Origin: Fimbriimonadia bacterium
Lineage (GTDB): Bacteria > Armatimonadota > Fimbriimonadia > Fimbriimonadales > JABRVX01
Direction: 5' to 3'
Length of the DNA stretch: 64,000 nt
NCBI GenBank assembly: GCA_039961735.1
Contig: JABRVX010000059.1
Coordinates: 1-64,000 of the forward strand
Shown piece by piece: positions 1,862-63,066 of this stretch (its first letter is position 1; each line of letters begins with the position of its first letter). Under the pieces are notes generated by a model. It did not search any database and was not told the DNA's origin. It saw only the letters and a program-made list of their open reading frames with translations. A program made the translations under genes and the position numbers.

Positions 1862-2216
1862 TTCGGAACACCTCTTGGAGCCGAATCGCCACGGTCGATT
1901 GGGGCCGGACGCTACAGGATCTCCACCATACGGACGGGTGGAGGCTCTCAAATCGTTCTAAGTAAAGTAATTCCCGCAGTTTCGCGGATGCTGGGGGCGA
2001 CGCGAGCCAGCACTTGCCTATTACTGCGGGAACGGCTAGAATAGGCAACGCAAAGCGTAACGAATGGGTACGCCCAGCCGTACAGGATCGCGTGTCACCT
2101 GCGCCTAAGACGCCGAGTTCCCGAAAATCGAACCGGATAGCGTCTCGTGGGCGCAGCATGAGGCGCCGGCTTGCCGTCGCCAGGACCCGGTACAGGGCGC
2201 ACGGATGGAGGTTTTG

Positions 2217-3155
2217 ATGCGTTGGTTGGCTGCAGTTTTGGTTTGCGCAGGGCTTGTGACGGCAGGTCACTCGCAGCAACCCGGTACAGATTACAGGTTC
2301 CAGGACTATGACCAGCTCTTCGTGTCGTTGGCTCAGGAGCCGGAGCGAAACATCCGGGCCACCGTAGGGGGGGACGGTTACATCGATTACCCATACATCG
2401 GCCGGGTGCTGGTGCGCGGGCGAACCGTGGCCGAGGTCCAAGAGGAGATCGTCAGCAGGCTGAAGGCCGGCGGGTATTTCGTGGCTCCCGACGTCAGCAT
2501 CACGATAGAGGTGTTCCGCAAACCGCTGGCTACGGTGGTCGGGCAGGACACTGTGCAGCGACCGAACGCGTACGAATTCCGGCCTGGTCAGCGTCTGCGC
2601 GACCTCATCGGAATGGCCGGCGGCCCCATCTATGGCGCAGCGGACACCAGGCGAGCCGTTCTTCAGCGTAAGGACAGCAACGAGCGTATTCCTGTGAACC
2701 TGCGGTTCCTTCTGCAGGACGTTCGTGACGACCAGAACTACGAGTTGAAGGACGGTGACGTTCTCACAGTTCCGCGCGACGAGCAGAACTTCATCACCGT
2801 CATCGGCGAAGTGAACAACCCAGGACCCCAGGTGTACCGCGAAGGGATGAGAGTGACCGACGCGATTGCCGCAGCACGGGGCGGCATTCCCGAACGAGGC
2901 CGGCTCAGCGCGATAACCCTGCTTAGGAAAGACCCGTACGACCCCGCCAAGGTCACTCAGATACCCGTGAACCTGTTCGAGGCGATCAAGGATATCAACA
3001 AGGACCTCGTGTTGCAGAAGACGGACACGCTGGTCGTGCCGCGAACGAACAACATAGACTTGCGCAACGTTCGGGACCTCGCGAATGCGATTTATATCAT
3101 CACCATCACGCTTCGGAATCGGCCATTCGACGCCGTGACCGACGCTCTGCGATAG
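2217..3155 (+). CDS. Polysaccharide export protein, Wza-like (SLBB domains)
   Basis: Signal peptide MRWLAAVLVCAGLVTAGHS. Repeated soluble-ligand-binding beta-grasp-like segments (GDVLTVP, FITVIGEVNNPG). GGAGG 5 nt upstream of ATG 2217; alternative in-frame ATG at 2205. Confidence 0.7.
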   Translation: MRWLAAVLVCAGLVTAGHSQQPGTDYRFQDYDQLFVSLAQEPERNIRATVGGDGYIDYPYIGRVLVRGRTVAEVQEEIVSRLKAGGYFVAPDVSITIEVFRKPLATVVGQDTVQRPNAYEFRPGQRLRDLIGMAGGPIYGAADTRRAVLQRKDSNERIPVNLRFLLQDVRDDQNYELKDGDVLTVPRDEQNFITVIGEVNNPGPQVYREGMRVTDAIAAARGGIPERGRLSAITLLRKDPYDPAKVTQIPVNLFEAIKDINKDLVLQKTDTLVVPRTNNIDLRNVRDLANAIYIITITLRNRPFDAVTDALR

Positions 3156-3175
3156 GTTAGGTAGGGGGCGGCTCA

Positions 3176-5413
3176 GTGCAAAGCGGAATTCTTCAGTTCC
3201 TGGCGCCGGTTCGGCGCCGATGGTGGCTAGTGGCCATTATCGTCATCCCCATCTGCTTGATCACAGCGGCAATCTCCATTTTCTCGCCCACGATGTACGA
3301 CGGTTTCGTGACGATCACCGAGAAGCGCGTGGACCCACGCACGAACGTCGAGATCTATCCCACCATGGGCATCCAGACTGTGGACGTGGAGACGAGGCTG
3401 AACAACCTCATCAACACGATCACGAGCTGGACGGTGTTGCAAAAGACGTTCCTGGACCTTGTACAAACTGGCGAGTGGAAGCCCAAAGCCAATCCTTCAG
3501 CTGGAACGAAACAGTTCAACGACGCGATCACGGAGTTCACCTCTTCAGTGGACATCGAGCCAGTCCGCGGCTCCGAGTTGATCCGAATCCACTTCAAGGC
3601 TGATTCGCAGGAGGCCGCAATGGCGGGGATCAGCCGGCTCTACACGAACTTCCGTGACCACTACATCGAGCTGAACAGTGCCGCGGGCCTGAGAGAGCGC
3701 GAGTTTATCGAGGCGATGCTCGCCAAGGCGAGACAGGACTTTGCCGACGTCGTGGAGCGGAGGAAGAAGTACATCGCGGAGAATGAAGCTGTTGCACTCC
3801 AGGCTTCGACCTCCAGCCTGGTGAACCTTCGCGGGGAGACGCTTTCACAGATGAATCAGGCGGAGCGGGACCTCGCGATGTCCCAACGCTCGCAGGCCGT
3901 CTACCAGGCCGTGAAGGCCGAAAACCAGAAGCAGCCCCTCATCCCGACCGCCACGGCCCAGGCGATGAACCCGGTGTACGACCAGATCAAGCGCCAACTT
4001 GCGTCCGTTGAGGCAGAGTTATCGTCGCGCCTCCAGACGTATGGTCCCAACCACCCCCGCATGCGCGAGTTGGCACAGCAGAAGCAGGCTCTTATGGAAA
4101 AGGAAGCGGAGCTACTTCGAGCGAAGGAGGCTTACCTTCTGTCCGGCAAGTCCGAGACTCGTAGCTCCGAGTTGACGGAGGCGGAGCGAAACGTCAACCT
4201 GACCGAAGCGAACATAGTTGCCGCGAGGGCTAGGAAGGCGGTCCTCAACGTGCAGCTGGAGGACATCGAGCAGAAGCTGCAGCAGGTGCCTGAGAAGGAG
4301 CGGGGTCTGGCCCTGATCGAGGCGGAGTACGTCTCGCGACAGCGCGACCTCGATTTGCTTCAGACACGACTTACCGAAGCGAAGATCAAAGAAGAGGATG
4401 CGAAGAACGTACGCCTTACGATGGTGGACGACGCGTTCGTCCGGGTTATCCCGAAAAAGACCCTAATCAAGCTCGCGATCGCCTTCGGCCTCAGCTTCGC
4501 GCTCTCCGTGGGTTTGGTGCTGGTTCTCGGCCAGTTCGATGCCGGAGCGTACAGTCCGATGCAGGCGGAGAACGCGCTGGGCTACCCGGTCATCGGGTCG
4601 CTTCCGCGTACTCGCCAGGCTCAGCTTCCGAAGACGACCGAGACGGCGTCACCGCTCGCCTCTTCGTTCCAGGTGCTTTCCACCAACATCGTGGAGATGC
4701 GGAACCGGTTGCAGGGTCCGGCCATCGTGGTAGCGAGTGCCGAGCCGAACGTCGGGCGCAGTTCGGTGGCTGCCAACCTGGCGGTGAGCCTGGCCAGGGA
4801 CGGCTCACGCGTCGTGCTGGTGGATGGAGACATGCGAGAGCCGTCACTTCACCGCCACTTCGACGTCGAGAACCGCAGTGGGTTGGCGGAGATTCTGGCC
4901 GGCACGGCGGCCATAGAGGATGTGTGCATGCCGACACCGGTGGACGGGTTGTTGCTGATCACTGCTGGCAAGCCGCCTGCTAACCCGGTCCGACTGCTGC
5001 GTGACGTGGGGTTGGAACGGTTCATCGAGCAGGTATCGAAGGCTGCGGACTTCGTGATATTCGACAGCCCGGCTGGCTCTGCGTTTGCGGATGCTGACGT
5101 GCTTGCCGGAACGCTTCAGAACGTGCTGCTCATCCACGAGGCCGGGTCACCGGCAACGATCAGCGAGGCGGAGTTCCACAAGCGGCTCGAGCGTCTGGGC
5201 ATCAACATTATCGGCGTTGCGTTGAACAAGGTCCGACCCGAGGACTGCTCTGGCTACATCACCTTCCGGCGAGCTTACGAGGCCTCGCTGATGGCGCGCG
5301 AGGTGCCCAGCATACCCACCGAGCGACCCGCACTCGACAAGCCCAAACGGGAGAAAGCCGAGGCACCACGTCGGCCGGATGTCGAGGCGGATGACGAGGA
5401 CGACGAGGTCTAG
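3176..5413 (+). CDS. Wzc/GumC-like polysaccharide co-polymerase with C-terminal BY-kinase-like ATPase domain. Atypical: Walker A Lys is Arg and there is no C-terminal Tyr cluster.
   Basis: N-terminal TM, long coiled-coil periplasmic region, second TM, then VVASAEPNVGRSSVAANLA (Walker A-like with GRS instead of GKS), VLVDGDMREPS (Walker A prime) and VIFDSPAG (Walker B). Acidic C-terminal tail DVEADDEDDEV. GTG start with AGGGGG RBS. Confidence 0.75.
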   Translation: MQSGILQFLAPVRRRWWLVAIIVIPICLITAAISIFSPTMYDGFVTITEKRVDPRTNVEIYPTMGIQTVDVETRLNNLINTITSWTVLQKTFLDLVQTGEWKPKANPSAGTKQFNDAITEFTSSVDIEPVRGSELIRIHFKADSQEAAMAGISRLYTNFRDHYIELNSAAGLREREFIEAMLAKARQDFADVVERRKKYIAENEAVALQASTSSLVNLRGETLSQMNQAERDLAMSQRSQAVYQAVKAENQKQPLIPTATAQAMNPVYDQIKRQLASVEAELSSRLQTYGPNHPRMRELAQQKQALMEKEAELLRAKEAYLLSGKSETRSSELTEAERNVNLTEANIVAARARKAVLNVQLEDIEQKLQQVPEKERGLALIEAEYVSRQRDLDLLQTRLTEAKIKEEDAKNVRLTMVDDAFVRVIPKKTLIKLAIAFGLSFALSVGLVLVLGQFDAGAYSPMQAENALGYPVIGSLPRTRQAQLPKTTETASPLASSFQVLSTNIVEMRNRLQGPAIVVASAEPNVGRSSVAANLAVSLARDGSRVVLVDGDMREPSLHRHFDVENRSGLAEILAGTAAIEDVCMPTPVDGLLLITAGKPPANPVRLLRDVGLERFIEQVSKAADFVIFDSPAGSAFADADVLAGTLQNVLLIHEAGSPATISEAEFHKRLERLGINIIGVALNKVRPEDCSGYITFRRAYEASLMAREVPSIPTERPALDKPKREKAEAPRRPDVEADDEDDEV

Positions 5414-5457
5414 TTGGTTGGGTGGCGCCGCGACCGACGCGGCGCCACCCCTTATGC

Positions 5458-6138
5458 ATGAATATGAGACTGGCAAAGAGAGCGACACAGGCACAGACGG
5501 TCTCCGTTTTCGAGGGCCGGATACCCTATCGCCATGTGCAATACCGGGTGTTCAAACGCGTGCTGGACGTGACGGGTTCTGCCGCCATGCTGCTGCTGCT
5601 GTTCCCACTCATGGCTGCCATTGCGCTAGCCGTCAAGCTGACTTCCCCTGGCCCGGTGATCTTCATGCAGCCGCGGGTGGGGCTCCGCGGGCGAACGTTT
5701 ATGTTCCTGAAGTTCCGCTCCATGTACATGGATGCCGAGCAGCGGCTCCGAGAAGTGGGCGGGCTGAACGAGAAGGATGGACCGATCTTCAAGATCAAGA
5801 ACGACCCCAGGGTCACGCCGATCGGCCGGACGCTGCGCAAGTTCAGCCTCGACGAGCTGCCGCAGCTCATCAACGTGCTGCGCGGGGACATGAGCCTGGT
5901 GGGACCACGTCCGCCATTGCCCCGCGAGGTGGAGAAGTATGATGAAGAGAGCTATGTACGGCTCTGCGTGACTCCGGGCATTACTTGCCTTTGGCAAATC
6001 TGCGGCCGCAGCGATCTATCCTTTGTGGATTGGGTCCGACTAGACAGGTTCTACATCGAGCACATGTCGTTCTGGCTCGATCTGAAGATTCTGCTCTTGA
6101 CCATTCCTGCAGTGCTGAAAGGACAAGGAGCATACTAG
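5458..6138 (+). CDS. Polyprenyl-phosphate sugar phosphotransferase (bacterial sugar transferase family, WbaP/WcaJ C-terminal-domain type)
   Basis: Single N-terminal TM, then the conserved core PGPVIFMQPRVG...FLKFRSM...DELPQL...GDMSLVGPRP. Start uncertain: in-frame GTG at 5422, ATG at 5458 or 5464. Confidence 0.8.
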   Translation: MNMRLAKRATQAQTVSVFEGRIPYRHVQYRVFKRVLDVTGSAAMLLLLFPLMAAIALAVKLTSPGPVIFMQPRVGLRGRTFMFLKFRSMYMDAEQRLREVGGLNEKDGPIFKIKNDPRVTPIGRTLRKFSLDELPQLINVLRGDMSLVGPRPPLPREVEKYDEESYVRLCVTPGITCLWQICGRSDLSFVDWVRLDRFYIEHMSFWLDLKILLLTIPAVLKGQGAY

Positions 6139-6217
6139 CCGGGTGGGATAGAGGCGCGCGCAAGGCGGGCATGTCGGCACGTGGCGACCACCATCGGCAA
6201 CGACATAGGGGTATCGG

Positions 6218-7168
6218 TTGAATCGGATACTGGTAACGGGCGGGGCCGGCTTCATCGGAGGCTTCGTCGTCGAACAACTGCTGAGCGCGGGGAAGGCCGT
6301 TCGGGTGCTAGACGACCTGTCCACTGGCTCGATGGACACGCTGGACGGTCTGGTTGGCAATCTGGAGTTTCAGCGTGGGGACATCCGCGACGAGAAGGCG
6401 GTTCGCGCCGCGGTTGCCGACGTTTCCGGCATCATTCACCTGGCTGCCGACATCTCGGTCCCCGATTCGCTGAACAATCCACTTCACACCTACTCGGTCA
6501 ACGTGATGGGTACGTTGACGGTGCTGGAAGAGGCGCGTCGTGCGGGGGTGGAGAGCTGCGTGATAGCCAGCTCGGCCGCCGTGTACGGAGAGCCTGTTGG
6601 GAGCAAGCAATCCGAGGACTCGCCTACGCTGCCCCTGTCGCCCTACGGGGCGAGCAAGCTGGAGTGCGAGCAACTTGCCTCGCTTTACAGTCGCGCATTT
6701 GCGGTGCCGACGCTTTGCCTACGGTTGTTCAATGTTTACGGGCCCCGGCAGAGGCATGATTCGCCCTATGCCGCCGTGATCCCCATTTTTCTCTCGCGCA
6801 TGATGCAGGGGCTGCCACCGCAGGTTTTCGGTGACGGTCAGCAGCGACGTGACTTCGTGTTCGTCGGCGACGTGGCGCGGGCCCTGATTGGAGCGCTGGG
6901 GCACCCCGAGCTTGCTCCAGGCGTGTACAACGTGGCATCTGGCACGAGCTGCAACCTGCTGGACCTTATCGCAGAGATCAACCGGAGCCTGGGCACGGCG
7001 CTGCAACCCGAGTTCTTGCCGGAGCGGAAGGGAGACATCCGTGAGAGCGTCGCCGACATCTCGCGGGCTCGTCACGAGCTGGGCTTCTCGCCTGCCGTGT
7101 CACTGGCGGAAGGAATCTCCCGAATCGTCCACGAGCGCGTTGTCCCGACGGAGGCGGTCGGTGGCTGA
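6218..7168 (+). CDS. NAD-dependent epimerase/dehydratase (extended SDR, GalE-like)
   Basis: TGGAGFIGG Rossmann motif, catalytic YxxxK (PYGASK), overall GalE/UDP-sugar epimerase architecture. TTG start. Confidence 0.8.
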   Translation: MNRILVTGGAGFIGGFVVEQLLSAGKAVRVLDDLSTGSMDTLDGLVGNLEFQRGDIRDEKAVRAAVADVSGIIHLAADISVPDSLNNPLHTYSVNVMGTLTVLEEARRAGVESCVIASSAAVYGEPVGSKQSEDSPTLPLSPYGASKLECEQLASLYSRAFAVPTLCLRLFNVYGPRQRHDSPYAAVIPIFLSRMMQGLPPQVFGDGQQRRDFVFVGDVARALIGALGHPELAPGVYNVASGTSCNLLDLIAEINRSLGTALQPEFLPERKGDIRESVADISRARHELGFSPAVSLAEGISRIVHERVVPTEAVGG

Positions 7169-8093
7169 TGCTGCGCAGGCTGCAGAACAGGTTGCCGTTG
7201 ACGCCAAGCCTCTGCCTCTTAGCTTGCTCGTGGCGATGCGCCCGAGGCAGTGGGCGAAGAATTTCCTGCTGTTCGGCGGGCTCATCTTTAGCGGGAGCTT
7301 TGCGAAGCCCGAGCTGGTACTTCGTTCGTTCGCAGCCTTCGCCCTGTTCTGCGCGCTGTCGAGTGGGGTGTACCTTCTGAACGATGTGCGCGACCGAGAG
7401 CGGGACGCGCTGCACCCTGAGAAGAGGAGACGGCCCATCGCTTCCGGCCGTGTCTCGGTCGGTCTCGCCGTGGGGACGGCAGTGGTGCTGCTGGTAGCCG
7501 GGATCGGATTGGGCTTCGCTCTGGACCTTGGCTTCGGTGGTGTCGGGACTCTCTACCTTGTCTTACAGGGCGCGTACACCTATGCGCTGAAACAGGTCGT
7601 GATTCTCGACGTCTTTCTGGTTGCTGCCGGCTTCGTGCTTCGGGCTCTTGCCGGCGCGGTTGTTCTGGACGTGCGGTTTTCGCCCTGGCTGTTCCTGTGC
7701 ACGATGATGCTCGCGCTTTTCCTAGGTTTCGGCAAGCGGAGGCACGAGTTGTTGTCGCTGGGTGCCGAAAGCGGCATGCACCGGAACGCGCTGAGGGAGT
7801 ACACGCCCAACCTGCTGGACCACGCGGTCGTGGTGAGCGCAGCATGCACCGTAATGTCCTATGCGCTCTACACGATCCAGTCGACGACGGGTCAGTCCAA
7901 TCCGTATCTGATGCTGACCATCCCGTTCGTGCTCTATGGGGTGCTCAGGTACCTATACCACCTGTACACGCAGCGCGAGGGAGGGAGCCCGGACAAGCTG
8001 CTCTTTCAGGACCCTCACCTCTTGCTGACTGTAGGGTTATGGGTCTTAGTCGCCATCCTCGCGATGGTGCTGGGCAAGACTGGAGTGGAATGA
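7161..8093 (+). CDS. UbiA-family prenyltransferase resembling decaprenyl-phosphate 5-phosphoribosyltransferase (DPPR synthase)
   Basis: N-terminal RPRQWAKNFLLF motif, Asp-rich NDVRDRERD motif, multiple TM helices. Putative GTG start overlaps the epimerase stop (GTGGCTGA); ATG 7233 is the alternative. Confidence 0.7.
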   Translation: MADAAQAAEQVAVDAKPLPLSLLVAMRPRQWAKNFLLFGGLIFSGSFAKPELVLRSFAAFALFCALSSGVYLLNDVRDRERDALHPEKRRRPIASGRVSVGLAVGTAVVLLVAGIGLGFALDLGFGGVGTLYLVLQGAYTYALKQVVILDVFLVAAGFVLRALAGAVVLDVRFSPWLFLCTMMLALFLGFGKRRHELLSLGAESGMHRNALREYTPNLLDHAVVVSAACTVMSYALYTIQSTTGQSNPYLMLTIPFVLYGVLRYLYHLYTQREGGSPDKLLFQDPHLLLTVGLWVLVAILAMVLGKTGVE

Positions 8094-8121
8094 CGTGGTC
8101 AATGGTAGTCTACCGCCCAGC

Positions 8122-8646
8122 ATGACGGAGATGACCGGAGTTCGAGCTTGGGTACAGCGGCAGCCGGAGGCTCGTCGCCAGTTCGTGAAGTTCGCAGTGG
8201 TCGGGGCCTCGAGTACGGTGCTCGACCTGCTGACGTATAAGCTGTTGTGGTTCGTGCTGCCGGTCATTCCCTACGCTATGGCTCGGGGAGTGTTCCTGCT
8301 GACCGATCCGCTGGGCATCGCGCTGGACCTACAGAGAACTGCCGCTGCGATGGCCAGCGTGATCTCCAGTGGAGTGGTGGGCACTGCCAACAGCTTCTAT
8401 TGGAATCGAAAGTGGACGTTCCGCGCAAGCGGACACGACTTGGCAATCCGACAGATACGTCGGTTTCTCTTCGTCTCGTATACCGGCATGGCCCTGAGGG
8501 CGATTATCGTGTATGGGTTGATGCCTCCGACAGGCGTCCGGCCGTCAGCTATTCAGGTGCTGATTTATCAGCTCATAGCCATCGTGATCGTGATGTTCTG
8601 GAACTTTTTCATGAACCGCCTATGGACATTTCGCAAGAACCGATAA
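8122..8646 (+). CDS. GtrA family membrane protein (polyprenyl-phosphate sugar translocation-associated)
   Basis: RRQFVKFAVVGASSTVLDLLTY N-terminus and four TM segments, typical of GtrA (PF04138-like). Start ambiguous: GTG 8095, ATG 8122 or 8131. Confidence 0.65.
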   Translation: MTEMTGVRAWVQRQPEARRQFVKFAVVGASSTVLDLLTYKLLWFVLPVIPYAMARGVFLLTDPLGIALDLQRTAAAMASVISSGVVGTANSFYWNRKWTFRASGHDLAIRQIRRFLFVSYTGMALRAIIVYGLMPPTGVRPSAIQVLIYQLIAIVIVMFWNFFMNRLWTFRKNR

Positions 8647-9533
8647 CGCAAGAGAGCTCAGCCGAGGAGACCAAGCCAGAGAAGCGCAAGTTTCAGCTCA
8701 AGATTCCGGAGCTGGAGACGCGCGATTGGGTTTTGATCGCGCTGCTCGTGTTCGCCGCCGTGGCGCCTTTCTGGAGAATGTGGGAATATGCCTGGGACCA
8801 GTGGTTCAAGGATACCGGCTACTATCAGCACGGTATCTTCGTGCCGTTGCTCATCGGCTACATGCTGTGGCGGCGATGGGAGGACCTCCGGCAGATAAGT
8901 GTGAACCCAGCCACATGGGCGATTGCCGTGGTAGTGCTTGGGGCGCTGGTCGGATGGTGGGGCAGCCGTGTTGATAGCCAGGTGGTTAGGCAGTTCGGGT
9001 TCATGGTATTCCTGTTCGGCTCTTGCCTGTATGTGCTGGGGACTAAGATGACCCGTGCCCTGCTCATGCCAATCATCCTCGTCGGCTTCATGCTTCCTTT
9101 GCCAGACCTCGTCTTCAGCCAGATGACGAACTCCGGTCAGGTGTACTCTACCAAGCTGGCGGTCAAGATGCTCGACTTCTTGGGCTATGAGCCGCACATG
9201 GTAAACAACTCCACAATCACACTGGACAACTACCAGATGGAAGTCGGGGTGCCCTGCAGCGGCTTCAAGCTGACGATGGCGCTACTGATGTTCGGGTTAT
9301 TCTTCTGTTCGATAGCCAAGTTCAACTGGTGGCGGTCGATCATCATGTTCTTGGTGTTGGTGCCCGTCGCGCTCATCGTGAACAGCTGGCGTGTGGGGAT
9401 GATCGGCATCTTTGGAGAACACTTCGGTGACGCTGCGGGCAAGCTGTTTCACGATTGGGGAAGCTACTTGGAGCTAGTGTTGGCATACGGTGCACTGTTC
9501 GGACTTGCGAGGTTGCTAGGATGGAAAGAGTGA
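8622..9533 (+). CDS. Exosortase (EpsH/XrtA-like)
   Basis: Polytopic membrane protein with conserved exosortase motifs VGVPCSGFKL (catalytic Cys), NSWRVG (Asn/Arg) and multiple TM helices. Overlaps the GtrA 3' end. Confidence 0.75.
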   Translation: MDISQEPITQESSAEETKPEKRKFQLKIPELETRDWVLIALLVFAAVAPFWRMWEYAWDQWFKDTGYYQHGIFVPLLIGYMLWRRWEDLRQISVNPATWAIAVVVLGALVGWWGSRVDSQVVRQFGFMVFLFGSCLYVLGTKMTRALLMPIILVGFMLPLPDLVFSQMTNSGQVYSTKLAVKMLDFLGYEPHMVNNSTITLDNYQMEVGVPCSGFKLTMALLMFGLFFCSIAKFNWWRSIIMFLVLVPVALIVNSWRVGMIGIFGEHFGDAAGKLFHDWGSYLELVLAYGALFGLARLLGWKE

Positions 9534-10177
9534 GAAAGCACGCGATAAACATCTTCATCATCATGCTGCTGTGTACGATCGCCATCGCCGTGACGCCAGT
9601 TCGTCGGTATCAGGTACCGAATCAGGAGTATTACGTCGAGCGGGTCCCCAAGAACATCGGCAACTTCTCCGCTCGCCACACCAGCGACATGAGGGAGGTA
9701 TGGGAAGCCCTTAGTCCGGACGGAATCGTGTGGTCGGTTTACGAGGGGCCGGGGGTTCAGTGGATTGATTTCGTGTTTCTTTCCGGGCGTTCATCGGACG
9801 CCTTTCACGACCCACAGCTCTGCTTCCGCAACCAGGGCTGGAATTTGGAGCCGCCCGTGGTGAAGCACATGCGGATCGACTCGCTCAGCCAGGACATACC
9901 GGTCAACGTGCTATCCATGACCAACACGAGCGGGGTCAAGGCGACGGCGATCTACTTCTTCATCGGCCCGTTCGGCTATACGGCCAATCCCTTCGTGATC
10001 AAGATGTCGCTGTTCGCCGCGAAGAGTCTCGGGATATCGGCGGGCCAGGGCTACTTCATCCGGTTCATCGTGCCCACTGAGACCTCGCAGGAAGACGATT
10101 TGGAGAAGATCCGACGCTTTGCCTCCGACATATTTGCTGTGCTGAAAACCACTTTGCCGGAGGCGATCAAGAGCTAA
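9521..10177 (+). CDS. EpsI family protein (exosortase-associated)
   Basis: Single N-terminal TM then a periplasmic domain. Position immediately after, and overlapping, the exosortase is the classic EpsH-EpsI arrangement. Confidence 0.6.
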   Translation: MERVRKHAINIFIIMLLCTIAIAVTPVRRYQVPNQEYYVERVPKNIGNFSARHTSDMREVWEALSPDGIVWSVYEGPGVQWIDFVFLSGRSSDAFHDPQLCFRNQGWNLEPPVVKHMRIDSLSQDIPVNVLSMTNTSGVKATAIYFFIGPFGYTANPFVIKMSLFAAKSLGISAGQGYFIRFIVPTETSQEDDLEKIRRFASDIFAVLKTTLPEAIKS

Positions 10178-10186
10178 GGGCTGCCC

Positions 10187-11752
10187 ATGTCGATTCATCA
10201 CCAGCTAGCCGAGATAACTCACAACATGCGACTGTCGGTCGCGAAGCAGCGGCGCGGCTGGTTCAATGCGGTCAGCCGTGAAGCGCGGTTCAACATCATC
10301 CTAGCGGTTCTGTGCCTGATAGCCGCAGCCGTCCTGCTGTATCTGATGGGGGACTTGGAAGGCAGGCCTCTGCGCATGGCGATCGGTTTCGTGGCCGGCC
10401 TGCTCGCGTTCGTATTGGTGGCGCGGGCGCCAGACTCGCTGATCGGTGTTGTTCTGATCCTCAACGCTACCATCTTCGGCTTTGGCGCGTTCAGCTCGAT
10501 GATGTTGAAGTTCAACGTCTTCGAGACGCAGGAGGTGGTACTCGGAGCACTGCTGGTCTTCGCGTTTTGGGAGCACTTGCGGCAGGGGAAGCAGGAACGT
10601 GCATCCGTGGATACGGTGTTTGTCTCGCTGCTGATCTTCTATGCGATCGTGCTCTTCCAGATACTGCGTGCCCAGTTCCTTCAGGGACGCGAGTGGGTAT
10701 ACATCTGGGACCAATACGGCAAGATGTGCCACTACCTCTTGCTTCTGCCGATGATCATCTATTTGCGCGACCCGGAACGTCTTCGGGTGTTCCTGTGGGT
10801 GCTGTTCATCGGTACTGGCGTCGCTGCTTGCCAGACCTACTACTTCTTCTTCTTCGGTGCCGGTGGTTGGGGGCACCTGTTCGGGTTGGTAGACGTCAGC
10901 GCCCGCGGAGTAGGATTGGCTGTTCGCCTGCCCAGTTCCATGTTGATGATGGGCATGACAATCGTCTGCTTCGCACTCTATCTGCACGTGGATGACGAGA
11001 AGAAACGGAAGTTCTATCTCTTCGCCATGCTGGCTTTCATGATCGCCGTGGGCATGAACAAGGGCAGGAACGCCTACGTCGGAGTGCTAATCGGTACCGC
11101 CACTTTGTGGGTCTTTTCGAGCCGTCAGGCCCGATGGCGGGCATTTAAGGATGCATTCTGGCTATCGGCGATCTTCTTTGCCGCTGCGGTGGCAATCCCG
11201 CCACTGGGAGCGAAGGTCATGAACGTAGCCGAGCAGATCGGGATTCGGTTCATGCAGACCTTCGACCCTGTCGAGTATGAGGCTGGTGGCTATCGCGACC
11301 GAATGCGTGAGGTGGAACAGGCGCTGCCGAGATTCTACGAACACCCCATCCTGGGTCAGGGGCCGGGGGAGTATCTGCGCAGAACGTACGAGGTGACACG
11401 ACTTGGCGCGCACAAGATCGTCTACCAGCCCTATGTGCACAACTCCTACGTGTATATTCTGGCGACTGGGGGAGTGCTTACGTCCGGGGCAATCCTCGGA
11501 ATGTTCGGGGTCTGGATCGTGACGAACCTAAGACGGGTGCGTAGGCTTCGCAACCCCTATGCGCGCGCTTTCGCGTGGGGGGGCGTGGCCTACATGCTGG
11601 CGATGTTAGCGAGTTCCTGGGTGCAGCCCAACTTCTTTCTGAACGCGCCTATCACTACCACAGTAGTAATCGTCGGATTAGCTGAAGCCGCCGCCAGACG
11701 TGATCTGGAGGAACAATCACGTCTCAAGACTGAAACCTTCAAAGCGGCGTGA
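10187..11752 (+). CDS. O-antigen ligase/polymerase family membrane protein (Wzy/WaaL-like)
   Basis: About 12 TM helices with a large loop containing HNSYVYILATGG, the O-antigen ligase-like His/Arg loop motif. Confidence 0.7.
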   Translation: MSIHHQLAEITHNMRLSVAKQRRGWFNAVSREARFNIILAVLCLIAAAVLLYLMGDLEGRPLRMAIGFVAGLLAFVLVARAPDSLIGVVLILNATIFGFGAFSSMMLKFNVFETQEVVLGALLVFAFWEHLRQGKQERASVDTVFVSLLIFYAIVLFQILRAQFLQGREWVYIWDQYGKMCHYLLLLPMIIYLRDPERLRVFLWVLFIGTGVAACQTYYFFFFGAGGWGHLFGLVDVSARGVGLAVRLPSSMLMMGMTIVCFALYLHVDDEKKRKFYLFAMLAFMIAVGMNKGRNAYVGVLIGTATLWVFSSRQARWRAFKDAFWLSAIFFAAAVAIPPLGAKVMNVAEQIGIRFMQTFDPVEYEAGGYRDRMREVEQALPRFYEHPILGQGPGEYLRRTYEVTRLGAHKIVYQPYVHNSYVYILATGGVLTSGAILGMFGVWIVTNLRRVRRLRNPYARAFAWGGVAYMLAMLASSWVQPNFFLNAPITTTVVIVGLAEAAARRDLEEQSRLKTETFKAA

Positions 11753-12957
11753 CACCCGCTACATTGCCTCCACTTCGTCTGGTTCTCGTTACTCGTGCTT
11801 ATGCCACTCATCGAATTGGTGGGTTGGAGAGGCACGCGAGGGACGTGGCAGAGGGGCTGGTAGCACGCGGTCACTCGGTGACGGTGTGGACAACCGCCCA
11901 CCCTGCCGAGTCCGGATGCCATTCGAATGAGAGTGTGTTCATTCGCTACTTCCCGGACACCGCACCGGGCCTCCACTCTCGGGAGTTCAACCAAGCGGTG
12001 GTACAGGCGCTTGCCGAGGATCACTCTTTCGACTTGATGCTGGTGGAGTCACGCTCGGCTGAGGCGGCTCTCGACAGGCTGCGTCCCCCGCAGCGCCCAC
12101 CGGCTATCATGTTCATCCACGGCACCGAGGTGTCCGAGGAGCTCTCGATCATCGCTTTCGACCGTGGCCCGGGGCGGTATCTTCGGTTGCTCACGCAGCG
12201 CCTGCCTGCAATGCTCCGCTCGCTCGCGCGCCCTCGGGCGCACTTCGCCGCCGAGAGAGTGGTGTGCGTGAGTCAATACGTGGCCGATCACCTTGCCTCG
12301 GTTTATCTGGCACCGCCCGAGGTGCTCCGCGTGGTCCGGAACGGCATACCGCTTCCCCCGATGCCTACCCAAGCCGATTGTAGGGCGGCACGAGAGCATC
12401 TCGGCTTGCCACAGGACGCGACAATCATCCTGTGCATCGGTCGTCTCGCTCCGGACAAAGGCTTTGACAATGCGATATGGGCTTTTGGTCGCGTGCAGCG
12501 AGACTATCCGTGCCTGCTGTTGATAGTTGGCGGAGGACCGGACGAGGAGCGGTTGCGGTCGCTAGTTGCATCGCTCGGACTCGGCAAGGTCGTGAGGTTC
12601 GCCGGCGAGGTGCCTCAGGCCGCGACGCCACCGTACTACGCTGCTTCGGACATTCTGCTGCTACCCGGTGTGCGGTACGAGGGTCATCCCTATGTACTCG
12701 TGGAGGGGGCAGCGATGGGGCTTGCCGTGATCGCCTCGGATCGCGCGGGCCTGGGTTCCGAGCTGGCCGGCGAAAAGATCGCACTCACCATCCGTCCCGG
12801 CAGTGTGGACGATCTCGCCGACGCGTTGAGAACACTACTCGGCTCCGCTGAACTTCGCCGGAGGATGGGAGGCGCCCTGCGCCGGCACGCAGAGCGCCAC
12901 TACACACTCGACGCAATGTTGGACGGCATCGAGGCCGTCATGTCCGAGTTGCTCTAG
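11749..12957 (+). CDS. Glycosyltransferase family 4 (GT-B, group 1)
   Basis: C-terminal EX7E-like region GEVPQAATPPYYAASDILLLPGVRYEGHPYVLVEGAAMGLAVIAS. GTG start overlaps the upstream stop. Confidence 0.8.
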   Translation: MTPATLPPLRLVLVTRAYATHRIGGLERHARDVAEGLVARGHSVTVWTTAHPAESGCHSNESVFIRYFPDTAPGLHSREFNQAVVQALAEDHSFDLMLVESRSAEAALDRLRPPQRPPAIMFIHGTEVSEELSIIAFDRGPGRYLRLLTQRLPAMLRSLARPRAHFAAERVVCVSQYVADHLASVYLAPPEVLRVVRNGIPLPPMPTQADCRAAREHLGLPQDATIILCIGRLAPDKGFDNAIWAFGRVQRDYPCLLLIVGGGPDEERLRSLVASLGLGKVVRFAGEVPQAATPPYYAASDILLLPGVRYEGHPYVLVEGAAMGLAVIASDRAGLGSELAGEKIALTIRPGSVDDLADALRTLLGSAELRRRMGGALRRHAERHYTLDAMLDGIEAVMSELL

Positions 12958-15917: not shown

Positions 15918-15955
15918 TGGTCACGCCGTGCCTCCGCTGCTCCTGCAGCGGAGGC
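15918..15955 (+). terminator. Perfect 16-bp-stem hairpin (gccgtgcctccgctgc/tcc/tgcagcggaggcacggc) followed by a T-containing tract, downstream of the GT39 gene
   Basis: Inverted repeat read directly from sequence. Confidence 0.6.
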
Positions 15956-16124
15956 ACGGCTATTCGTTCTTGCCCCAGGAAGAGGAATCCCGTTCGAGGC
16001 GTATCGTAGGAGCACAGTGCAGTAGGCTGGGCGCAAGAACTTAGCGAATCGCAGCAAACTTTCGCCCGTAATCTTGCGGTGAAGGCTCGGATGTGATAGT
16101 ATTTGTCTACTGTTGAGGATACTG

Positions 16125-27500: not shown

Positions 27501-28081
27501 CTTGTTCCGACCTACTAGTGCGGCCTGCAACTGCAGCAGCCTGCCCTCGGCACGCGCATGCCCGAACAGCGCTGGCAAGGGAAGCCACACGTCGATACGG
27601 GAGAAGACGGTCCCGCGACGGATGCCCGAGGTCACTGGCCAATCCACCTCCGCGCCCTCACGGCGTCGGGGGAGAGATCCTCGGACCTGAAGTGCGGGGT
27701 CCCATAGTCGGCAACCCGCCGCGAGGCACGACCGTACTAGTCGGGGGAGTCTAAGTGCAGCCCAGATTCGGCCGTTTTGGGCCGCTCGGGCGGGCGATTG
27801 TCGTTGCGGGACTCTCGAGGCCGATCCGTCTTAGGTTCAAACCGCAGTGAGAGTCCCGCAAAATCGGCCGAAAAACATTATTTTTGTTGCAATGCGACTG
27901 CCCGATTGGGACCCTTCTCGGTGGAGACGAGGTCCGCAGGGGGAGGAGCTAGGGGTGCTGAGGGTGCCGAAACGTAAGCGTCGAACCGTTTTTTGCCTGA
28001 GTGTGCTTAGTGATTTAGACACCTTTGCGCGACTCTCCCCCTTTTTGAGGCCTTCCAGAGAGTCCCGCATAGGTTCAAAGG

Positions 28082-28111
28082 TTGACAGATCGCCAAATCG
28101 GGTGATAGAAT
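28082..28111 (+). promoter_or_regulatory. Leader promoter TTGACA-18bp-TAGAAT about 26 bp upstream of the first CRISPR repeat
   Basis: Read directly. Sits in an AT-richer leader (27860-28137) that also carries internal repeats (gagagtcccgca and taggttcaaa, each twice). Confidence 0.5.
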
Positions 28112-28137
28112 TGAACCTGGAGAGGGCCGAGGGAAGG

Positions 28138-28406
28138 GTCGCAGTGACCGCCCCGCTAACAAGGGGACTGAAACCTATTACCGGCTCTGTTACGGCGGCT
28201 CTTTTTTTATCGGTCGCAGTGACCGCCCCGCTAACAAGGGGACTGAAACCCGGAGGCGGGGCGTGGCGAAGCTACGCAGCTGGGGACCTCAGCGTCGCAG
28301 TGACCGCCCCGCTAACAAGGGGACTGAAACGATGACTGGTACCAGTTACCAGTCAACCCGCAAGTCCGCGTCGCAGTGACCGCCCCGCTAACAAGGGGAC
28401 TGAAAC
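28138..28406 (+). CRISPR. CRISPR-like array of 4 identical 37-bp repeats (GTCGCAGTGACCGCCCCGCTAACAAGGGGACTGAAAC) with 3 unique spacers of 38, 44 and 39 bp
   Basis: Repeats at 28138-28174, 28213-28249, 28294-28330 and 28370-28406. The repeat has an internal stem (CCCCG...GGGG) and a 3' GAAAC. No cas gene recognisable anywhere in the window. Confidence 0.85.
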
Positions 28407-28483
28407 GACTTCGGCGGCGGGGGCGAGCGCCGAGGAATGTACGGCCCGTTCCGATCGCTCGCCCCCGCCGCCGAAGTCGTTTC
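28402..28483. terminator. Perfect 28-bp-stem palindrome (gaaacgacttcggcggcgggggcgagcg ... cgctcgcccccgccgccgaagtcgtttc) with a 26-nt loop. Begins inside the last CRISPR repeat.
   Basis: Inverted repeat read directly. The 3' GAAAC of repeat 4 forms the base of the stem. Could be an array terminator, a palindromic spacer, or a remnant. Confidence 0.6.
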
Positions 28484-28696
28484 AACACACAGTTCCCGAC
28501 GCACACGCCGCCTTCCGTACCGAGCCGGTGTCGGCCGAAAAGTACGCAGTGGTGGCAAGTCAGCGTGACGTGCTGGGCCCAGAAGTAACAGACCCCGCGA
28601 TGGGTTCGAGCAATGGGTGATTAGCTGGTGCTCGAACGCCGCTCGAGCACAGTGCACAAAGCAACAGCACGACCAGGGACCCCGGCCGATACGGCG

Positions 28697-38533: not shown

Positions 38534-38774
38534 CTACCACGTTGCACGTGGCTGCCTCCCGGCTGTTGTCACCTCACTCGCCGTTCGCAGTATTGCATTA
38601 GGTAGCAGCGCTCTATGCACCATGCTGAGCCTCCTCCCCCGTGTTAGATATCATCTCGGTAGCGATCATTCAGCACAGCAACTCGAATAAGCACATGAAC
38701 ACCCAAACCGTCATGCTGAGCCCCCGACCCCGTGTATTAGCCAACACACCAGCAAAGTTCCGTCATAAAGTTCC

Positions 38775-38984
38775 GTCATGCTGAGCCTGTCGAAGCATGA
38801 CCGCGCCTGATGCGAACGTCGCGGTTTCATGTGGTAGCGAGTGGCTGACGGATGCATGCTTCGACAGGCTCAGCATGACGTTAGCTTCGACAGGCTCAGC
38901 ATGACGTTAGCTTCGACAGGCTCAGCATGACGTTAGCTTCGACAAGCTCAGCATGACGTTAGCTTCGACAGGCTCAGCATGACG
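38775..38984. repeat. Palindromic repeat cluster: one inverted copy gtcatgctgagcctgtcgaagcatgac (38775-38801) followed by about 5 tandem copies of the 26-bp unit ttagcttcgacaggctcagcatgacg (38855-38984). Additional half-site copies gtcatgctgagcc at 38621-38631 and 38710-38722.
   Basis: Read directly. The unit is itself a hairpin (gtcatgct...agcatgac). The region downstream of rpoD is non-coding and lower in GC. Confidence 0.8.
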
Positions 38985-46813: not shown

Positions 46814-46834
46814 CGGGTAACCACCCTCGACCGC

Positions 46835-46867
46835 GTTGCCCTGGAGCAGCCTCTGCTCCAGGGCAAC
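46835..46867. terminator. Bidirectional terminator hairpin (gttgccctggagcag/cct/ctgctccagggcaac) between convergent glnA and the metalloprotease gene
   Basis: Perfect 15-bp stem read directly. Confidence 0.65.
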
Positions 46868-46892
46868 GTCATACGTACGGCACTTGGAGGCT

Positions 46893-50670: not shown

Positions 50671-51537
50671 TCAGACCTCCGGCGCGGCCTCCGACTGCGC
50701 GGCATCCCACTGGGCCGCGTACTCGGGGTCGCGTTTACACAACGGCACGAAGTCGCACCCCAAACACACCGCTTTGAACGCCGGCTTTAGTGCCGCGAAG
50801 TCTGTCTCCAGGATCTCCTCTCCCAACAAACGCAGGCTCTCCTCGAACTGCGCTAACTCCTCATCGGTCAGCCCAACGGTGGCAGATTGGTTGGCCCGCA
50901 GTGCGTGAATCGTCGCGCGCACCGAACGCTCCGGATGAAGCCTGCGCAGAAGCAACTGATAGGCGCACATGGCGAGGTCGTTGCGCACGTCCTCCTCGGT
51001 GACGCTGTCCCGACCGCTTTTGTAGTCCACCACCTCGAGAGCGCCGTCGGGATGCTCGTCCACGCGGTCCACGCGGCCCTGCAGCAGGAAGGGGCCAAGG
51101 TCGAAGCGCAGCATCCGTTCGACGTACACGGGCTTGGCGAGCGTCGGCGCTGCAGCCTGCTTCTCGTAGTAGGCGACAAGCAGTTCGCGACCCATCTCCA
51201 GCCGCCTTGCCGACTCCTCGGGGCTGTCGTATCCCGCTTCGATCCAGCTTTCTTCATAGTCGGCCAGCAGGGTTTCTTTGGGCACCTCGCCAACGCCGCC
51301 CTGTTCGTGAAAGCGCTGCAGCACTTTGTGCAGGGTGGCGCCGAAGCTGAAATAGGGTTTGGCAGTTCGGTACCAACGTCCTCGCGGGTCCACGAAGCTC
51401 CAGCGATACATCACCGGGCAGGCGAGGTAGGTCACGAACTTGGACGGGCTAAGGGTGGGTTTGTCCTTCACGGCGACCTCCGTGATCTCGCCCCGCAGTG
51501 GGCGGTCCAAAAGCATAGGCGAGAGGCCCGACGCCAC
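50671..51537 (-). CDS. PD-(D/E)XK nuclease, Cas4/RecB-like, with a 4-Cys Fe-S cluster signature
   Basis: N-terminal YLACPVMYRW (Cas4-like CP motif), VDYKSG (D-x-K), C-terminal CLGCDFVPLC (Cx2Cx5C). Confidence 0.65.
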   Translation of the reverse strand: MASGLSPMLLDRPLRGEITEVAVKDKPTLSPSKFVTYLACPVMYRWSFVDPRGRWYRTAKPYFSFGATLHKVLQRFHEQGGVGEVPKETLLADYEESWIEAGYDSPEESARRLEMGRELLVAYYEKQAAAPTLAKPVYVERMLRFDLGPFLLQGRVDRVDEHPDGALEVVDYKSGRDSVTEEDVRNDLAMCAYQLLLRRLHPERSVRATIHALRANQSATVGLTDEELAQFEESLRLLGEEILETDFAALKPAFKAVCLGCDFVPLCKRDPEYAAQWDAAQSEAAPEV

Positions 51538-53903: not shown

Positions 53904-56093
53904 GTGAGCAAGCTCGATCTCTCCTCTCTCAACCCCAAGCAACTGGAGGCAGTCATGCATCCCGGCGGGCCGCTCTTGGTGTTTGCCGGTGCAGGGAGCG
54001 GCAAGACTCGGGTGATTACCTATCGAATCGCGCGCCTCATCTCGGACGGCCTGCGCCCCTGGAACGTGCTCGCCGTCACATTCACCAACAAAGCCGCGAA
54101 CGAGATGAAAGAGCGTGTCGCTGCACTGCTGGGCGAGGACCTGCAGCCGCGGTGGGTGGGCACCTTCCACTCGATGTGCAGCCGCATCCTGCGCGAGTGT
54201 GGAGAGCGCATCGGTATAGACCGCAACTTCGTCGTTTATGATGATGACGACCAGACATCTGTGGTGCGAGACTGCCTCAGGGAACTGAACCTGGACGAGA
54301 AGCAGTTCACCCCCCGCTCGGTACTGACCACCATCAGTCGGGCCAAGGAGAAGCTGATCTCCGCAGAGCAATTCCCCGACGTTGTGCACGGATTCTTCGA
54401 GCGGATCGTCGCCGAGGTGTACCCGAAGTATCAGGCCCGCCTACGCGAGTACAACGCTTTAGACTTCAACGATCTGATCTTTTTCGCAGTGCGGCTGCTG
54501 CGGGAAGACCGAACGGTGCTCGAGCGCTACCGAGACCAGTTCCGCCATGTGCTGGTGGACGAGTATCAGGACGTCAATCAGTCGCAGTACACACTGATTC
54601 AGCTACTCGGCGGGGAACACGAGAACATCACGGTGGTCGGCGACGACGACCAGTCCATCTATGGGTGGCGCGGAGCCGACGTGAAGCTGATCCTGCGTTT
54701 CACCAGCGACTACCCGGACGCGAAGGTGGTGACGCTGGACCAGAACTACCGTTCGACTCAGAGCATCCTGGACGCCGCGCATCGCGTCATCCGTCGCAAC
54801 CGCAACCGCGCAGAAAAGAAGCTGTGGACCGAGAATGCTGGCGGCTCGCCAGTGACCCTGACGATGTGTGGCACGGAGACCGACGAGGCGCAAGTGATTG
54901 CCGAGACCATTCAGCGCGAGGTGCGAGCCGGCCACAGGCGCTACGGCGACTTCGCGATCCTGTATCGCACGAACGCTCAGTCGCGAGCCTTCGAGGAAAC
55001 GTTTCTCGGCCTCCGCATCCCCCACATAATCATCGGGGGCACGCGGTTTTACGAGCGGAAGGAGATCAAGGACGTCGTCGCCTACCTACGCGTCATCCAC
55101 AACCCGTATGACCTCAAGGCGCTCGAGCGCATCGTCAACGTGCCCGCCCGAGGCATCGGCCCTACGACGCTGCAGGTATTACGGGACCATGCAGACAACG
55201 CAGAGCGTCTGTGGGACGCAATGCGGTCCGATGCCGCGATAGAGGCGCTCGGCACGGCGGCACGCAAGCGGGTCGCGGCGTTCGTTCAGCTCATCGAGGA
55301 CTTGCGGCAGATGCCACTGGAAGGACCGGTGTTGCCGGTAGTCGAGGCAACCATCCGCCAAAGCGGCTATCTCGATGCGCTCGCGGCAGACAGAACTGAA
55401 GAGGGCCGGGATCGGGTCGAGAATGTTCGCGAGTTCTTGACCGTTGCGGGCAACTACGACAGCCGCGCCGAGGAGCCCACGCTGGCCGAGTTTCTGCAGA
55501 ACATCGCTTTGGTATCGGACGCCGACTTCGTGGGCGAACGGGCGGATTCCGTACAGCTTCTCACCCTGCACACCGCGAAGGGCTTGGAATTCCCGGTGGT
55601 GTTCCTCGCGGGCCTCGAAGAAGGCGTGTTTCCGCATCAACGTTGCCTCGACTCGGAGTCCCAACTCGAGGAAGAGCGCAGACTCTGCTACGTCGGGATG
55701 ACTCGGGCACAGGAGGAGCTGAATCTGACCTACGCGACGAGGCGAGCCTTTCGCGGTCAGACATCGTTCAACCGCCCCTCGCGCTTTCTGCAGGACCTGG
55801 ATCCCGACGTGGTCACTTCGCTCGGGGCACCGATCCCACCTGCCGCGTCGGGGTTGAGACCTGGAACGGAGCGGCATCCGGCGCGTCCCCCGGTCGTTCA
55901 GCAGCAGACAGAGGCTGCCCGCGAGCCCGCCTTTGCGGTGGGGCAGAAGGTGCGGCACAAGAAGTTCGGCTTAGGGGTCGTGGTGGCTTGCGTTCCGGTG
56001 GGTGAGGACAGCGAAGTCACCGTAGCGTTTCCGGGTATTGTCGGCATCAAGAAGCTGCTACAGCGCTTCGCCGATCTCGAAGCCCTAGGGTAG
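53904..56093 (+). CDS. pcrA: ATP-dependent DNA helicase, UvrD/PcrA (SF1A)
   Basis: Motifs I (AGAGSGKT), II (VLVDEYQDVNQ), the remaining SF1 helicase motifs, and a C-terminal Tudor-like tail. GTG start. Confidence 0.85.
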   Translation: MSKLDLSSLNPKQLEAVMHPGGPLLVFAGAGSGKTRVITYRIARLISDGLRPWNVLAVTFTNKAANEMKERVAALLGEDLQPRWVGTFHSMCSRILRECGERIGIDRNFVVYDDDDQTSVVRDCLRELNLDEKQFTPRSVLTTISRAKEKLISAEQFPDVVHGFFERIVAEVYPKYQARLREYNALDFNDLIFFAVRLLREDRTVLERYRDQFRHVLVDEYQDVNQSQYTLIQLLGGEHENITVVGDDDQSIYGWRGADVKLILRFTSDYPDAKVVTLDQNYRSTQSILDAAHRVIRRNRNRAEKKLWTENAGGSPVTLTMCGTETDEAQVIAETIQREVRAGHRRYGDFAILYRTNAQSRAFEETFLGLRIPHIIIGGTRFYERKEIKDVVAYLRVIHNPYDLKALERIVNVPARGIGPTTLQVLRDHADNAERLWDAMRSDAAIEALGTAARKRVAAFVQLIEDLRQMPLEGPVLPVVEATIRQSGYLDALAADRTEEGRDRVENVREFLTVAGNYDSRAEEPTLAEFLQNIALVSDADFVGERADSVQLLTLHTAKGLEFPVVFLAGLEEGVFPHQRCLDSESQLEEERRLCYVGMTRAQEELNLTYATRRAFRGQTSFNRPSRFLQDLDPDVVTSLGAPIPPAASGLRPGTERHPARPPVVQQQTEAAREPAFAVGQKVRHKKFGLGVVVACVPVGEDSEVTVAFPGIVGIKKLLQRFADLEALG

Positions 56094-56110
56094 GAGGTTG
56101 AAGTATTCCA

Positions 56111-63003: not shown

Positions 63004-63066
63004 GGGCATCCTCCGGGTTCGTAGAGGGTCTTGCGGCACGCCGCGGACCCGGAGAGGGGATACGAC

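Follow-up and report, generated by a model that had tools for sequence, protein, structure and literature searches.

The DNA studied here is a 64-kb stretch (64,000 nucleotides, hereafter the window) of contig JABRVX010000059.1, which belongs to a Fimbriimonadia bacterium. At 27742-28484 of the window, the plus strand carries a leader with a putative promoter, an array of four repeats and three spacers, and a trailer hairpin that begins inside the last repeat. The gene upstream of this locus codes for a flotillin (Band_7 and Flot domains in Pfam) and the downstream gene, which is convergent to the array, carries a DUF5107 domain (Pfam). A first-pass annotation, made by a model from the letters of the sequence, had described a CRISPR-like array between an NfeD-flotillin operon and a DUF5107/TPR gene. 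The flotillin and DUF5107 assignments stand, whereas the NfeD label, which has no Pfam match, and the TPR label, for which no TPR family is reported in the protein, are unconfirmed.

The four repeats (28138-28174, 28213-28249, 28294-28330 and 28370-28406, all on the plus strand) are exact copies of the 37-nt sequence GTCGCAGTGACCGCCCCGCTAACAAGGGGACTGAAAC, including the terminal one, which is intact. The repeat starts with GTCGCAG and ends with GGGGACTGAAAC. The spacers, on the same strand, have a length of 38 nt (28175-28212), 44 nt (28250-28293) and 39 nt (28331-28369), and the third one contains an 8-bp palindrome (GACTGGTA...TACCAGTC). All three are unique, and the layout is that of a CRISPR array, which calls for three or more direct repeats (23-50 nt each) with unique spacers of about equal length between them. 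The repeat number, the repeat length and the three spacer lengths are those given at first reading. No further copy of GTCGCAGTGACCGCCCCGCTAACAAGGGGACTGAAAC is present in the window with up to 3 mismatches (0 expected from 100 shuffles), and no degenerate copy appears even when up to 11 mismatches are allowed.

In the repeat, CCCC and GGGG form a stem that closes an 8-nt loop, and ACTGAAAC comes next. The internal stem and the GAAAC tail of the first-pass annotation are both found, the 3' end being UGAAAC. The 8 nt located after GGGG, i.e., ACUGAAAC, fit as a 3' handle the layout of type III repeats processed by Cas6, with a cut position deduced from what is known of Cas6 systems. A classification of the repeat, as had been suggested, leads to the Rfam family RF01323 (CRISPR-DR10) with a score of 36.2 bits (E = 3e-7, plus strand, model positions 1-37), which is just below the gathering score of 39. 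Both the window repeat and this family are 37 nt long, have the stem-loop (G)CCCCGC...GGGG at the same place and share the 3' end A(U/C)UGAAAC; the 5' third of the window repeat departs from the family consensus. Scans of IMG/VR with the repeat, and of the JGI metagenomes with the 3' 24-mer of the repeat and a conserved motif of the leader, gave no match.

The 3' 24 nt of the repeat were also used as query against GTDB (one genome per species), and a single contig matched: BTVI01000009.1 (98.8 kb), from the Fimbriimonadales metagenome-assembled genome (MAG) AMX-MBFR-61. This contig contains two arrays. The main array (~54,963-58,099) has 40 repeats and spacers of 37-52 nt and lies directly after cas2; its repeat, GTCGCAGCAACCTCCCCGCTAACAAGGGGACTGAAAC, is identical to the window repeat at 34 of 37 positions. 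The genes ahead of it code for Cas10/Csm1, Csm3, Csm4, Cas1 and Cas2 (NCBIfam). The second one, a mini-array, has four repeats (~97,982-98,252) and is located ~40 kb from the main array, on the opposite strand. The mini-array repeat differs from that of the window by 1 nt only, while its spacers (40, 39 and 44 nt) are all different. A Logan contig with a Cas1 99% identical to that of AMX-MBFR-61 is taken, on this sequence identity, to belong to the same lineage, and has the gene order cmr2-cmr3-RAMP-cmr5-RAMP-cas6-cas10-csm2-csm3-csm4-cas1-cas2. A third lineage (contigs L006 and L007, Cas1 76% identical) has the order csm2-csm3-csm4-cas1-cas2, followed by a leader and by a repeat 3 nt off that of the window.

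Thus, in both AMX-MBFR-61 and L006, repeats matching that of the window at 34 of 37 positions are found right behind cas1-cas2, together with a homologous leader. The type III genes beside these homologous arrays are cas10, csm/cmr and cas6 in the AMX-MBFR-61 lineage (contigs L005 and L010), and csm, cas1 and cas2 in L006/L007. All differences among the repeat variants fall in the 5' part or the loop, and neither the CCCC/GGGG stem nor the final 8 nt varies.

In addition, AMX-MBFR-61 has a solitary degenerate repeat at ~61,970, i.e., 3.9 kb beyond the main array. A gene for Csm6 is located on the same strand ~250 nt 3' of this repeat (BTVI01000009.1 ~61,970-63,641; on contig L003, 5970-6090 for the repeat region and 6340-7641 for the gene). 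This Csm6 has a HEPN domain, and its matches to CARF are weak and sub-threshold. The solitary repeat may be either an old array terminus or a cis element of the csm6 leader.

The leader of the window array (27742-28137, plus strand) is ~395 nt long and is homologous over its full length to the two leaders adjacent to cas2 as well as to that of the mini-array in AMX-MBFR-61. The alignment of these four leaders starts with the first base after the cas2 stop codon (GGGGGAGTCTA...). The conserved blocks of this alignment are GGGGGAGTCTA, two inverted-repeat motifs of the form GCGGGACTCT...AGAGTCCCGC, GTTCAAAGGTTGAC, which contains the -35 element, and ATTGAACCTG. The first inverted repeat (27804-27861, plus strand) consists of TTGCGGGACTCTC, 32 nt and GAGAGTCCCGCAA; its 13-nt arms are 100% complementary, its loop holds AGGTTCAA, and its stems are kept in the four leaders. 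The second one (28027-28068, plus strand), made of GCGCGACTCTC, 20 nt and GAGAGTCCCGC with 10 of 11 possible pairs, lies directly 5' of the -35 element and is likewise kept in all four. As had been noticed at first, the leader is richer in AT than its surroundings: its GC content is 0.568, and 0.522 for the final 138 nt, vs. 0.619 for the whole window.

A putative sigma-70-type promoter, TTGACA-18-TAGAAT, lies on the plus strand at 28082-28111, with 11 of 12 positions matching the consensus and a TG preceding the -10 element. It is the sole match in the region, where shuffled sequences yield 0.1, and it ends 26 nt 5' of repeat 1, i.e., exactly where the first-pass annotation had placed it. The TTGAC of the -35 element is invariant in the four leaders, with a T as sixth base in one leader and an A in the other three, and the -10 region is only partly conserved. 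The promoter is flanked by an inverted motif, AGGTTCAA at 28071-28078 and TTGAACCT at 28111-28118. As a separate observation, each leader (27804-28118 in the window, and the homologues) has three copies of TTGAACCT or of its complement AGGTTCAA, namely in the loop of the first inverted repeat, just 5' of the -35 element and just 3' of the -10 element. The loop copy has opposite orientations in the mini-array and main-array leaders, as if a palindromic element had been flipped.

Among the four leaders, those of the two mini-arrays are the closest pair, with 75% identity over the proximal 150 nt vs. 63-71% for the other pairs. Moreover, a middle block of the leader is common to both mini-arrays and absent from the main-array leaders. 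The two mini-arrays share a homologous leader of ~395 nt, four repeats, spacers of 38-44 nt, an intact terminal repeat and a homologous trailer hairpin. They differ by all their spacers and by their flanks, i.e., flotillin and DUF5107 genes in the window and a phosphoribosyltransferase-like open reading frame (ORF), read from its translation only, in AMX-MBFR-61. On the basis of these alignments, the window locus reproduces a cas-type leader and its array in full, and this mini-array lineage is present in at least two genomes.

The window itself contains no recognizable cas locus. Pfam scans of the 53 candidate ORFs of the window detected no cas gene, and the best E value in tblastn of the window with 13 Cas proteins of the nearest relative was 0.028, with no remnant of cas1 or cas2 upstream of the leader. 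The statement that no cas genes occur within roughly 27 kb upstream and 35 kb downstream of the array is thus borne out by both approaches. They were used in place of a PADLOC scan of the same 53 ORFs, in which matches to UvrD/GajB models swamped any information on cas genes. The only gene with some likeness to a cas gene is that of a PD-(D/E)XK nuclease on the minus strand (50671-51537), which matches PDDEXK_1 with 121 bits and Cas4 with 25.6 bits. It is located 22 kb from the array among metabolic genes, the nearest helicase being of UvrD type and 2.4 kb off, and its product is probably a housekeeping enzyme, not a Cas protein.

The locus at 27742-28484 is a genuine CRISPR array and, taken together, these data make it quite probable that it is a satellite of a Cas6-dependent type III (Csm/Cmr) system encoded outside the window. 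Three options had been proposed for an array with such neighbours: (i) an orphan, (ii) an array served by a distant cas locus and (iii) an array used by a non-canonical partner. Nothing supports the third one. The second one is likely by analogy with a relative, and is the best supported as well as the most economical, because the homologous mini-array of AMX-MBFR-61 shares its contig with an intact type III locus ~40 kb away. In AMX-MBFR-61 the cas locus is thus seen on the mini-array's own contig, while in the window it is not seen. Genomes in which several arrays are served by one cas locus are commonplace.

Several results weigh against a satellite array of this kind. Firstly, the repeat misses the gathering score of RF01323 by 2.8 bits. 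Secondly, the three spacers have no match in 50,697 phage records, in IMG/VR (exact 24-30-mers), in plasmids or in the window itself, i.e., the spacer search suggested at first reading gave zero matches. Unmatched spacers are common for environmental lineages and are no argument against CRISPR membership. Thirdly, searches with Cas1, Cas6 and Csm3 among ~5.8 billion proteins (hits of at least 45% identity) led to other lineages only (L006/L007, GCA_013328875.1 and P0122). The organism of the window is also represented by the MAG GCA_964650095.1 (99.99% identity over 10.5 kb) and by several Logan assemblies, and no Cas1, Cas6 or Csm3 hit could be traced to this MAG or to the runs which carry the window contigs. 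Several NCBI hits for Csm3 (46-49% identity) were not traceable to their source.

The same searches count in favour of a true orphan, in which the lineage would have lost its cas genes and the leader, array and trailer would be a recent relic, neither processed nor updated. The 64 kb examined contain neither a cas gene nor a remnant, and the Cas1, Cas6 and Csm3 hits come from other lineages although the organism assembles well (189-kb contig). On the other hand, nothing in the locus points to decay: there is no difference between the four repeats, 11 of 12 promoter positions fit the consensus and the hairpin has a perfect stem of 29 bp. Its closest known homologue has an intact type III locus 40 kb away. 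The absence of hits is itself weak evidence, since the Cas6 of the L006 lineage is also missing from the protein collection despite the clear cas genes of that lineage, and since several Csm3 hits are untraced. MAG bins often lack CRISPR-cas islands. Finally, contigs of the window organism break off at 27834, within the leader, and at 28354, within the array; these breaks fit further copies of the sequences elsewhere, or strain variation, and are only suggestive. An orphan thus appears unlikely, and a cas locus at a distance is retained.

It could also be asked whether the repeats belong to CRISPR at all, since a 162-aa reading frame spans the array (27847-28335), as in an intragenic tandem repeat, and since the terminal palindrome superficially resembles the ends of mobile elements, as in a dispersed repeat such as a repetitive extragenic palindrome (REP) or a unit similar to a miniature inverted-repeat transposable element (MITE). 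However, the 162-aa frame has no Pfam match and its third-position GC is low (0.56). The repeat is confined to one cluster of the window, it resembles a CRISPR family and close variants of it follow cas2 in other genomes. The case which the first-pass annotation had named as fatal to its claim, i.e., a known non-CRISPR dispersed repeat, is not what is found. A mobile element was also considered and rejected: in the window the hairpin and the spacers are single-copy, there are no flanking direct repeats, and between the homologous loci there is neither conserved sequence past the hairpin nor any shared flanking gene. A non-CRISPR origin is effectively refuted.

With a type III system acting in trans, the array would work as follows. 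Transcription would start a few nt past 28111. Cas6 would bind the CCCC/GGGG stem-loop and cut 8 nt ahead of the end of each repeat. This would release three CRISPR RNAs (crRNAs) with the 5' tag ACUGAAAC, to be trimmed at their 3' end and loaded into Csm and/or Cmr complexes encoded elsewhere. New spacers would be added at the leader end by Cas1-Cas2, by means of the conserved leader, and such adaptation would explain why the spacers are fully replaced between the two genomes while leader, repeat and trailer are kept.

The end of the array has a structure that had been missed at first. The trailer hairpin (28401-28484, plus strand) consists of a perfect 29-bp stem (28401-28429 with 28456-28484) and a 26-nt loop, and is the longest inverted repeat of the window. 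Its 5' arm opens with TGAAAC, i.e., with the last 6 nt of repeat 4 (from repeat position 32 on). The RNA made of repeat 4 and the trailer has a predicted folding energy of -83.2 kcal/mol (z = -9.3), and its long helix starts 2 bases past a CCCC/GGGG stem-loop which remains free. In this predicted fold, the helix covers 6 of the 8 nt of the tag of repeat 4 as well as the first 23 nt of the would-be guide. The first-pass annotation had rightly found it unusual that the fourth repeat is not degenerate; the hairpin is the likely reason for this intact terminal repeat.

Two homologous hairpins are found in AMX-MBFR-61. In the mini-array trailer, there are 22 perfect pairs past the end of the repeat, and the pairing runs into the repeat, with one mismatch, up to GGGG. 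The solitary repeat has the same hairpin, the mutated 3' part of the repeat, GGTGCCTCAAAC, being opposite GTTTCAGGCACC. The three stems (GACTTCGGCG, GGCTCCGTTG and GGCTTCGACG) are homologous and in register when anchored on the repeat end. In the helix built from the three copies, pairing holds for 89.9% of the cells, and 11 of the 33 pairs have compensatory changes, i.e., changes on both sides; none of 500 shuffles attains these values. As a control, the partner strand was slid by 1-3 columns, and the pairing then fell to 34-46%.

This hairpin is absent from the 40-repeat main array of AMX-MBFR-61, where the last repeat is mutated in its tag (GACTAGAAC). It is also absent from two type III-A loci of Armatimonadota (L029 and L032), which have 29-nt I-E-like repeats and a Cas6e-type gene; in L032 at least, the terminal repeat of the array is degenerate. 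As far as seen, the trailer hairpin is thus specific to the repeat family of the window. As regards a terminator, the stem is present but it is followed only by UUU, three bases that pair with the AAA of the tag, and the terminator scan made no call here. Two other hairpins of the window located at gene ends (15925-15960 and 46834-46868) have perfect GC-rich stems of 16 bp, loops of 3-4 nt and no U tract.

Two roles, compatible with each other, can be considered for the hairpin. In the first one, it would end or stabilize the array transcript and, being palindromic, could also block the transcript of the convergent DUF5107 gene, so that no RNA antisense to the array is made. In the second one, it would keep the spacer-less, extraneous crRNA derived from repeat 4 out of the effector complexes: the tag is read as a single strand, so a helix over 6 of its 8 nt should prevent loading. 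The hairpin can tentatively be proposed to be a dedicated RNA device of type III systems, in which tag/anti-tag and guide/complement pairing, as modelled from the fold, would neutralize the extraneous crRNA without any mutation of the last repeat. The hairpin located upstream of csm6 in AMX-MBFR-61 might in turn be a site where type III complexes bind or cut the leader of a cas gene in cis without Cas10 signalling.

The proposal of an RNA device meets several objections. The covariation comes from three sequences, two of which belong to one genome, and for the pair count the arms of the hairpins were excised and joined, with the loops removed. The three G-U pairs are balanced by three A-C mismatches, i.e., there is no strand signal for selection, and a palindrome may be kept for its effect as DNA even if its RNA has no function. 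Moreover, the Cas6 stem-loop stays free in the predicted fold, so that cleavage of the last repeat is probably unblocked and only the use of its product would be blocked.

Some other sequences related to these loci were observed. Two DDE transposase fragments (DDE_Tnp_1_4) adjoin the solitary repeat of AMX-MBFR-61 (L003 5367-5868, minus strand, one of them being 5632-5868). At the start of the 5632-5868 fragment, 26-27 nt (L003 5641-5667) are identical to the unit of a tandem repeat of the window (38858-38984). This window element (38774-38984) consists of 4.9 tandem copies of the 26-nt unit GCTTCGACAGGCTCAGCATGACGTTA and of an inverted copy 55 nt upstream, which gives perfect arms of 26 bp. 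A MAG contig (L001) stops inside this repeat at 38909, and the 189-kb MAG contig appears to start just past it. The GCTTCGACAGGCTCAGCATGACGTTA element looks like a dispersed element common to the window and AMX-MBFR-61. Another contig, L021, contains the only other homologue of the Cas6 of this relative (333-1229, 41% identity), as a stand-alone gene beside a tRNA-like sequence. A single repeat, GTTGCAAACGCCCCGAGTAATAAAAGGGGATTGAAAC (~1626-1662), is found ~400 nt downstream of this gene, with a short hairpin behind it, and the 10 kb downstream yielded no call of a further cas gene.

Two further features of the window were noted. A 40-nt tandem repeat (751-936; 4.7 copies, 95% matches) lies in a stretch of 68% GC, inside an ORF of the minus strand without Pfam match or overlapping it. 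At 2205-12957, a polysaccharide export/exosortase cluster, unrelated to the array, contains genes for Poly_export/SLBB, a chain-length-regulator-like ATPase, a sugar transferase, the exosortase EpsH, a Wzy-like ligase and a GT4 glycosyltransferase.

As a whole, the window array is probably an ordinary secondary type III CRISPR array, and the trailer hairpin is its one feature beyond the routine, of modest novelty. The case illustrates that an array located tens of kb from any cas gene need not be an orphan, since the leader and a near-identical repeat tie it to a type III system.

Small repeat-spacer units away from a main array are also known as regulatory elements (CreA/CreTA, CreR and crRNA-like RNAs; PMC10120712, PMC8501985), whose guides repress host or cas genes by partial complementarity. 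The window array resembles them by its size and location, and mini-arrays are found near 10-16% of type III loci (PMC10120712). The size of four repeats is equal in two diverged genomes, and the same hairpin accompanies the solitary repeat found ~250 nt ahead of csm6 in AMX-MBFR-61. Nevertheless, the repeats of these regulatory elements are degenerate, their spacer is usually single, short and conserved, and their partial target is located close to cas or toxin genes (PMC10120712, PMC8501985), whereas the window array has perfect repeats, full-length spacers within the range of the main array of its relative, and a full leader of the adaptation type. All three spacers differ between the two genomes while a regulatory guide should be conserved, and no credible partial target of at least 15 nt was found in the window. 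It is thus very improbable that the array is a regulatory mini-array.

The closest known parallels of the trailer hairpin concern extraneous crRNAs, i.e., the products of a lone spacer-less repeat. In class 1 systems this repeat is the last one and is usually inactivated by mutation, while hairpins or terminators are used instead of repeat mutation in types II-A, II-C and VI (PMC13187072, PMC12080349). The mutation that is named as the alternative for the type II and VI systems is precisely the state of the last repeat in the main array of AMX-MBFR-61. The extraneous-crRNA problem has so far been studied only in Cas9, Cas12a and Cas13 systems, and in our literature search the corresponding structures were described only for types II, V-A and VI, with none found for class 1. 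Like the leader-repeat hairpin of type II-A and of several type VI systems, and like the guide-sequestering hairpin or terminator of type II-C, the window hairpin pairs a flank of the array with a spacer-less repeat; as in type II-C, it also pairs the would-be guide. The differences are that the known cases belong to class 2 with the hairpin on the leader side, whereas the window hairpin belongs to class 1 (type III), lies on the trailer side and pairs the 5' tag, with a putative function. If the hairpin does silence the spacer-less crRNA, a structural solution to the extraneous-crRNA problem would exist in class 1 too. It would be the class 1, trailer-side counterpart of the leader-repeat hairpins of types II-A and VI, and would explain why some terminal repeats are not degenerate.

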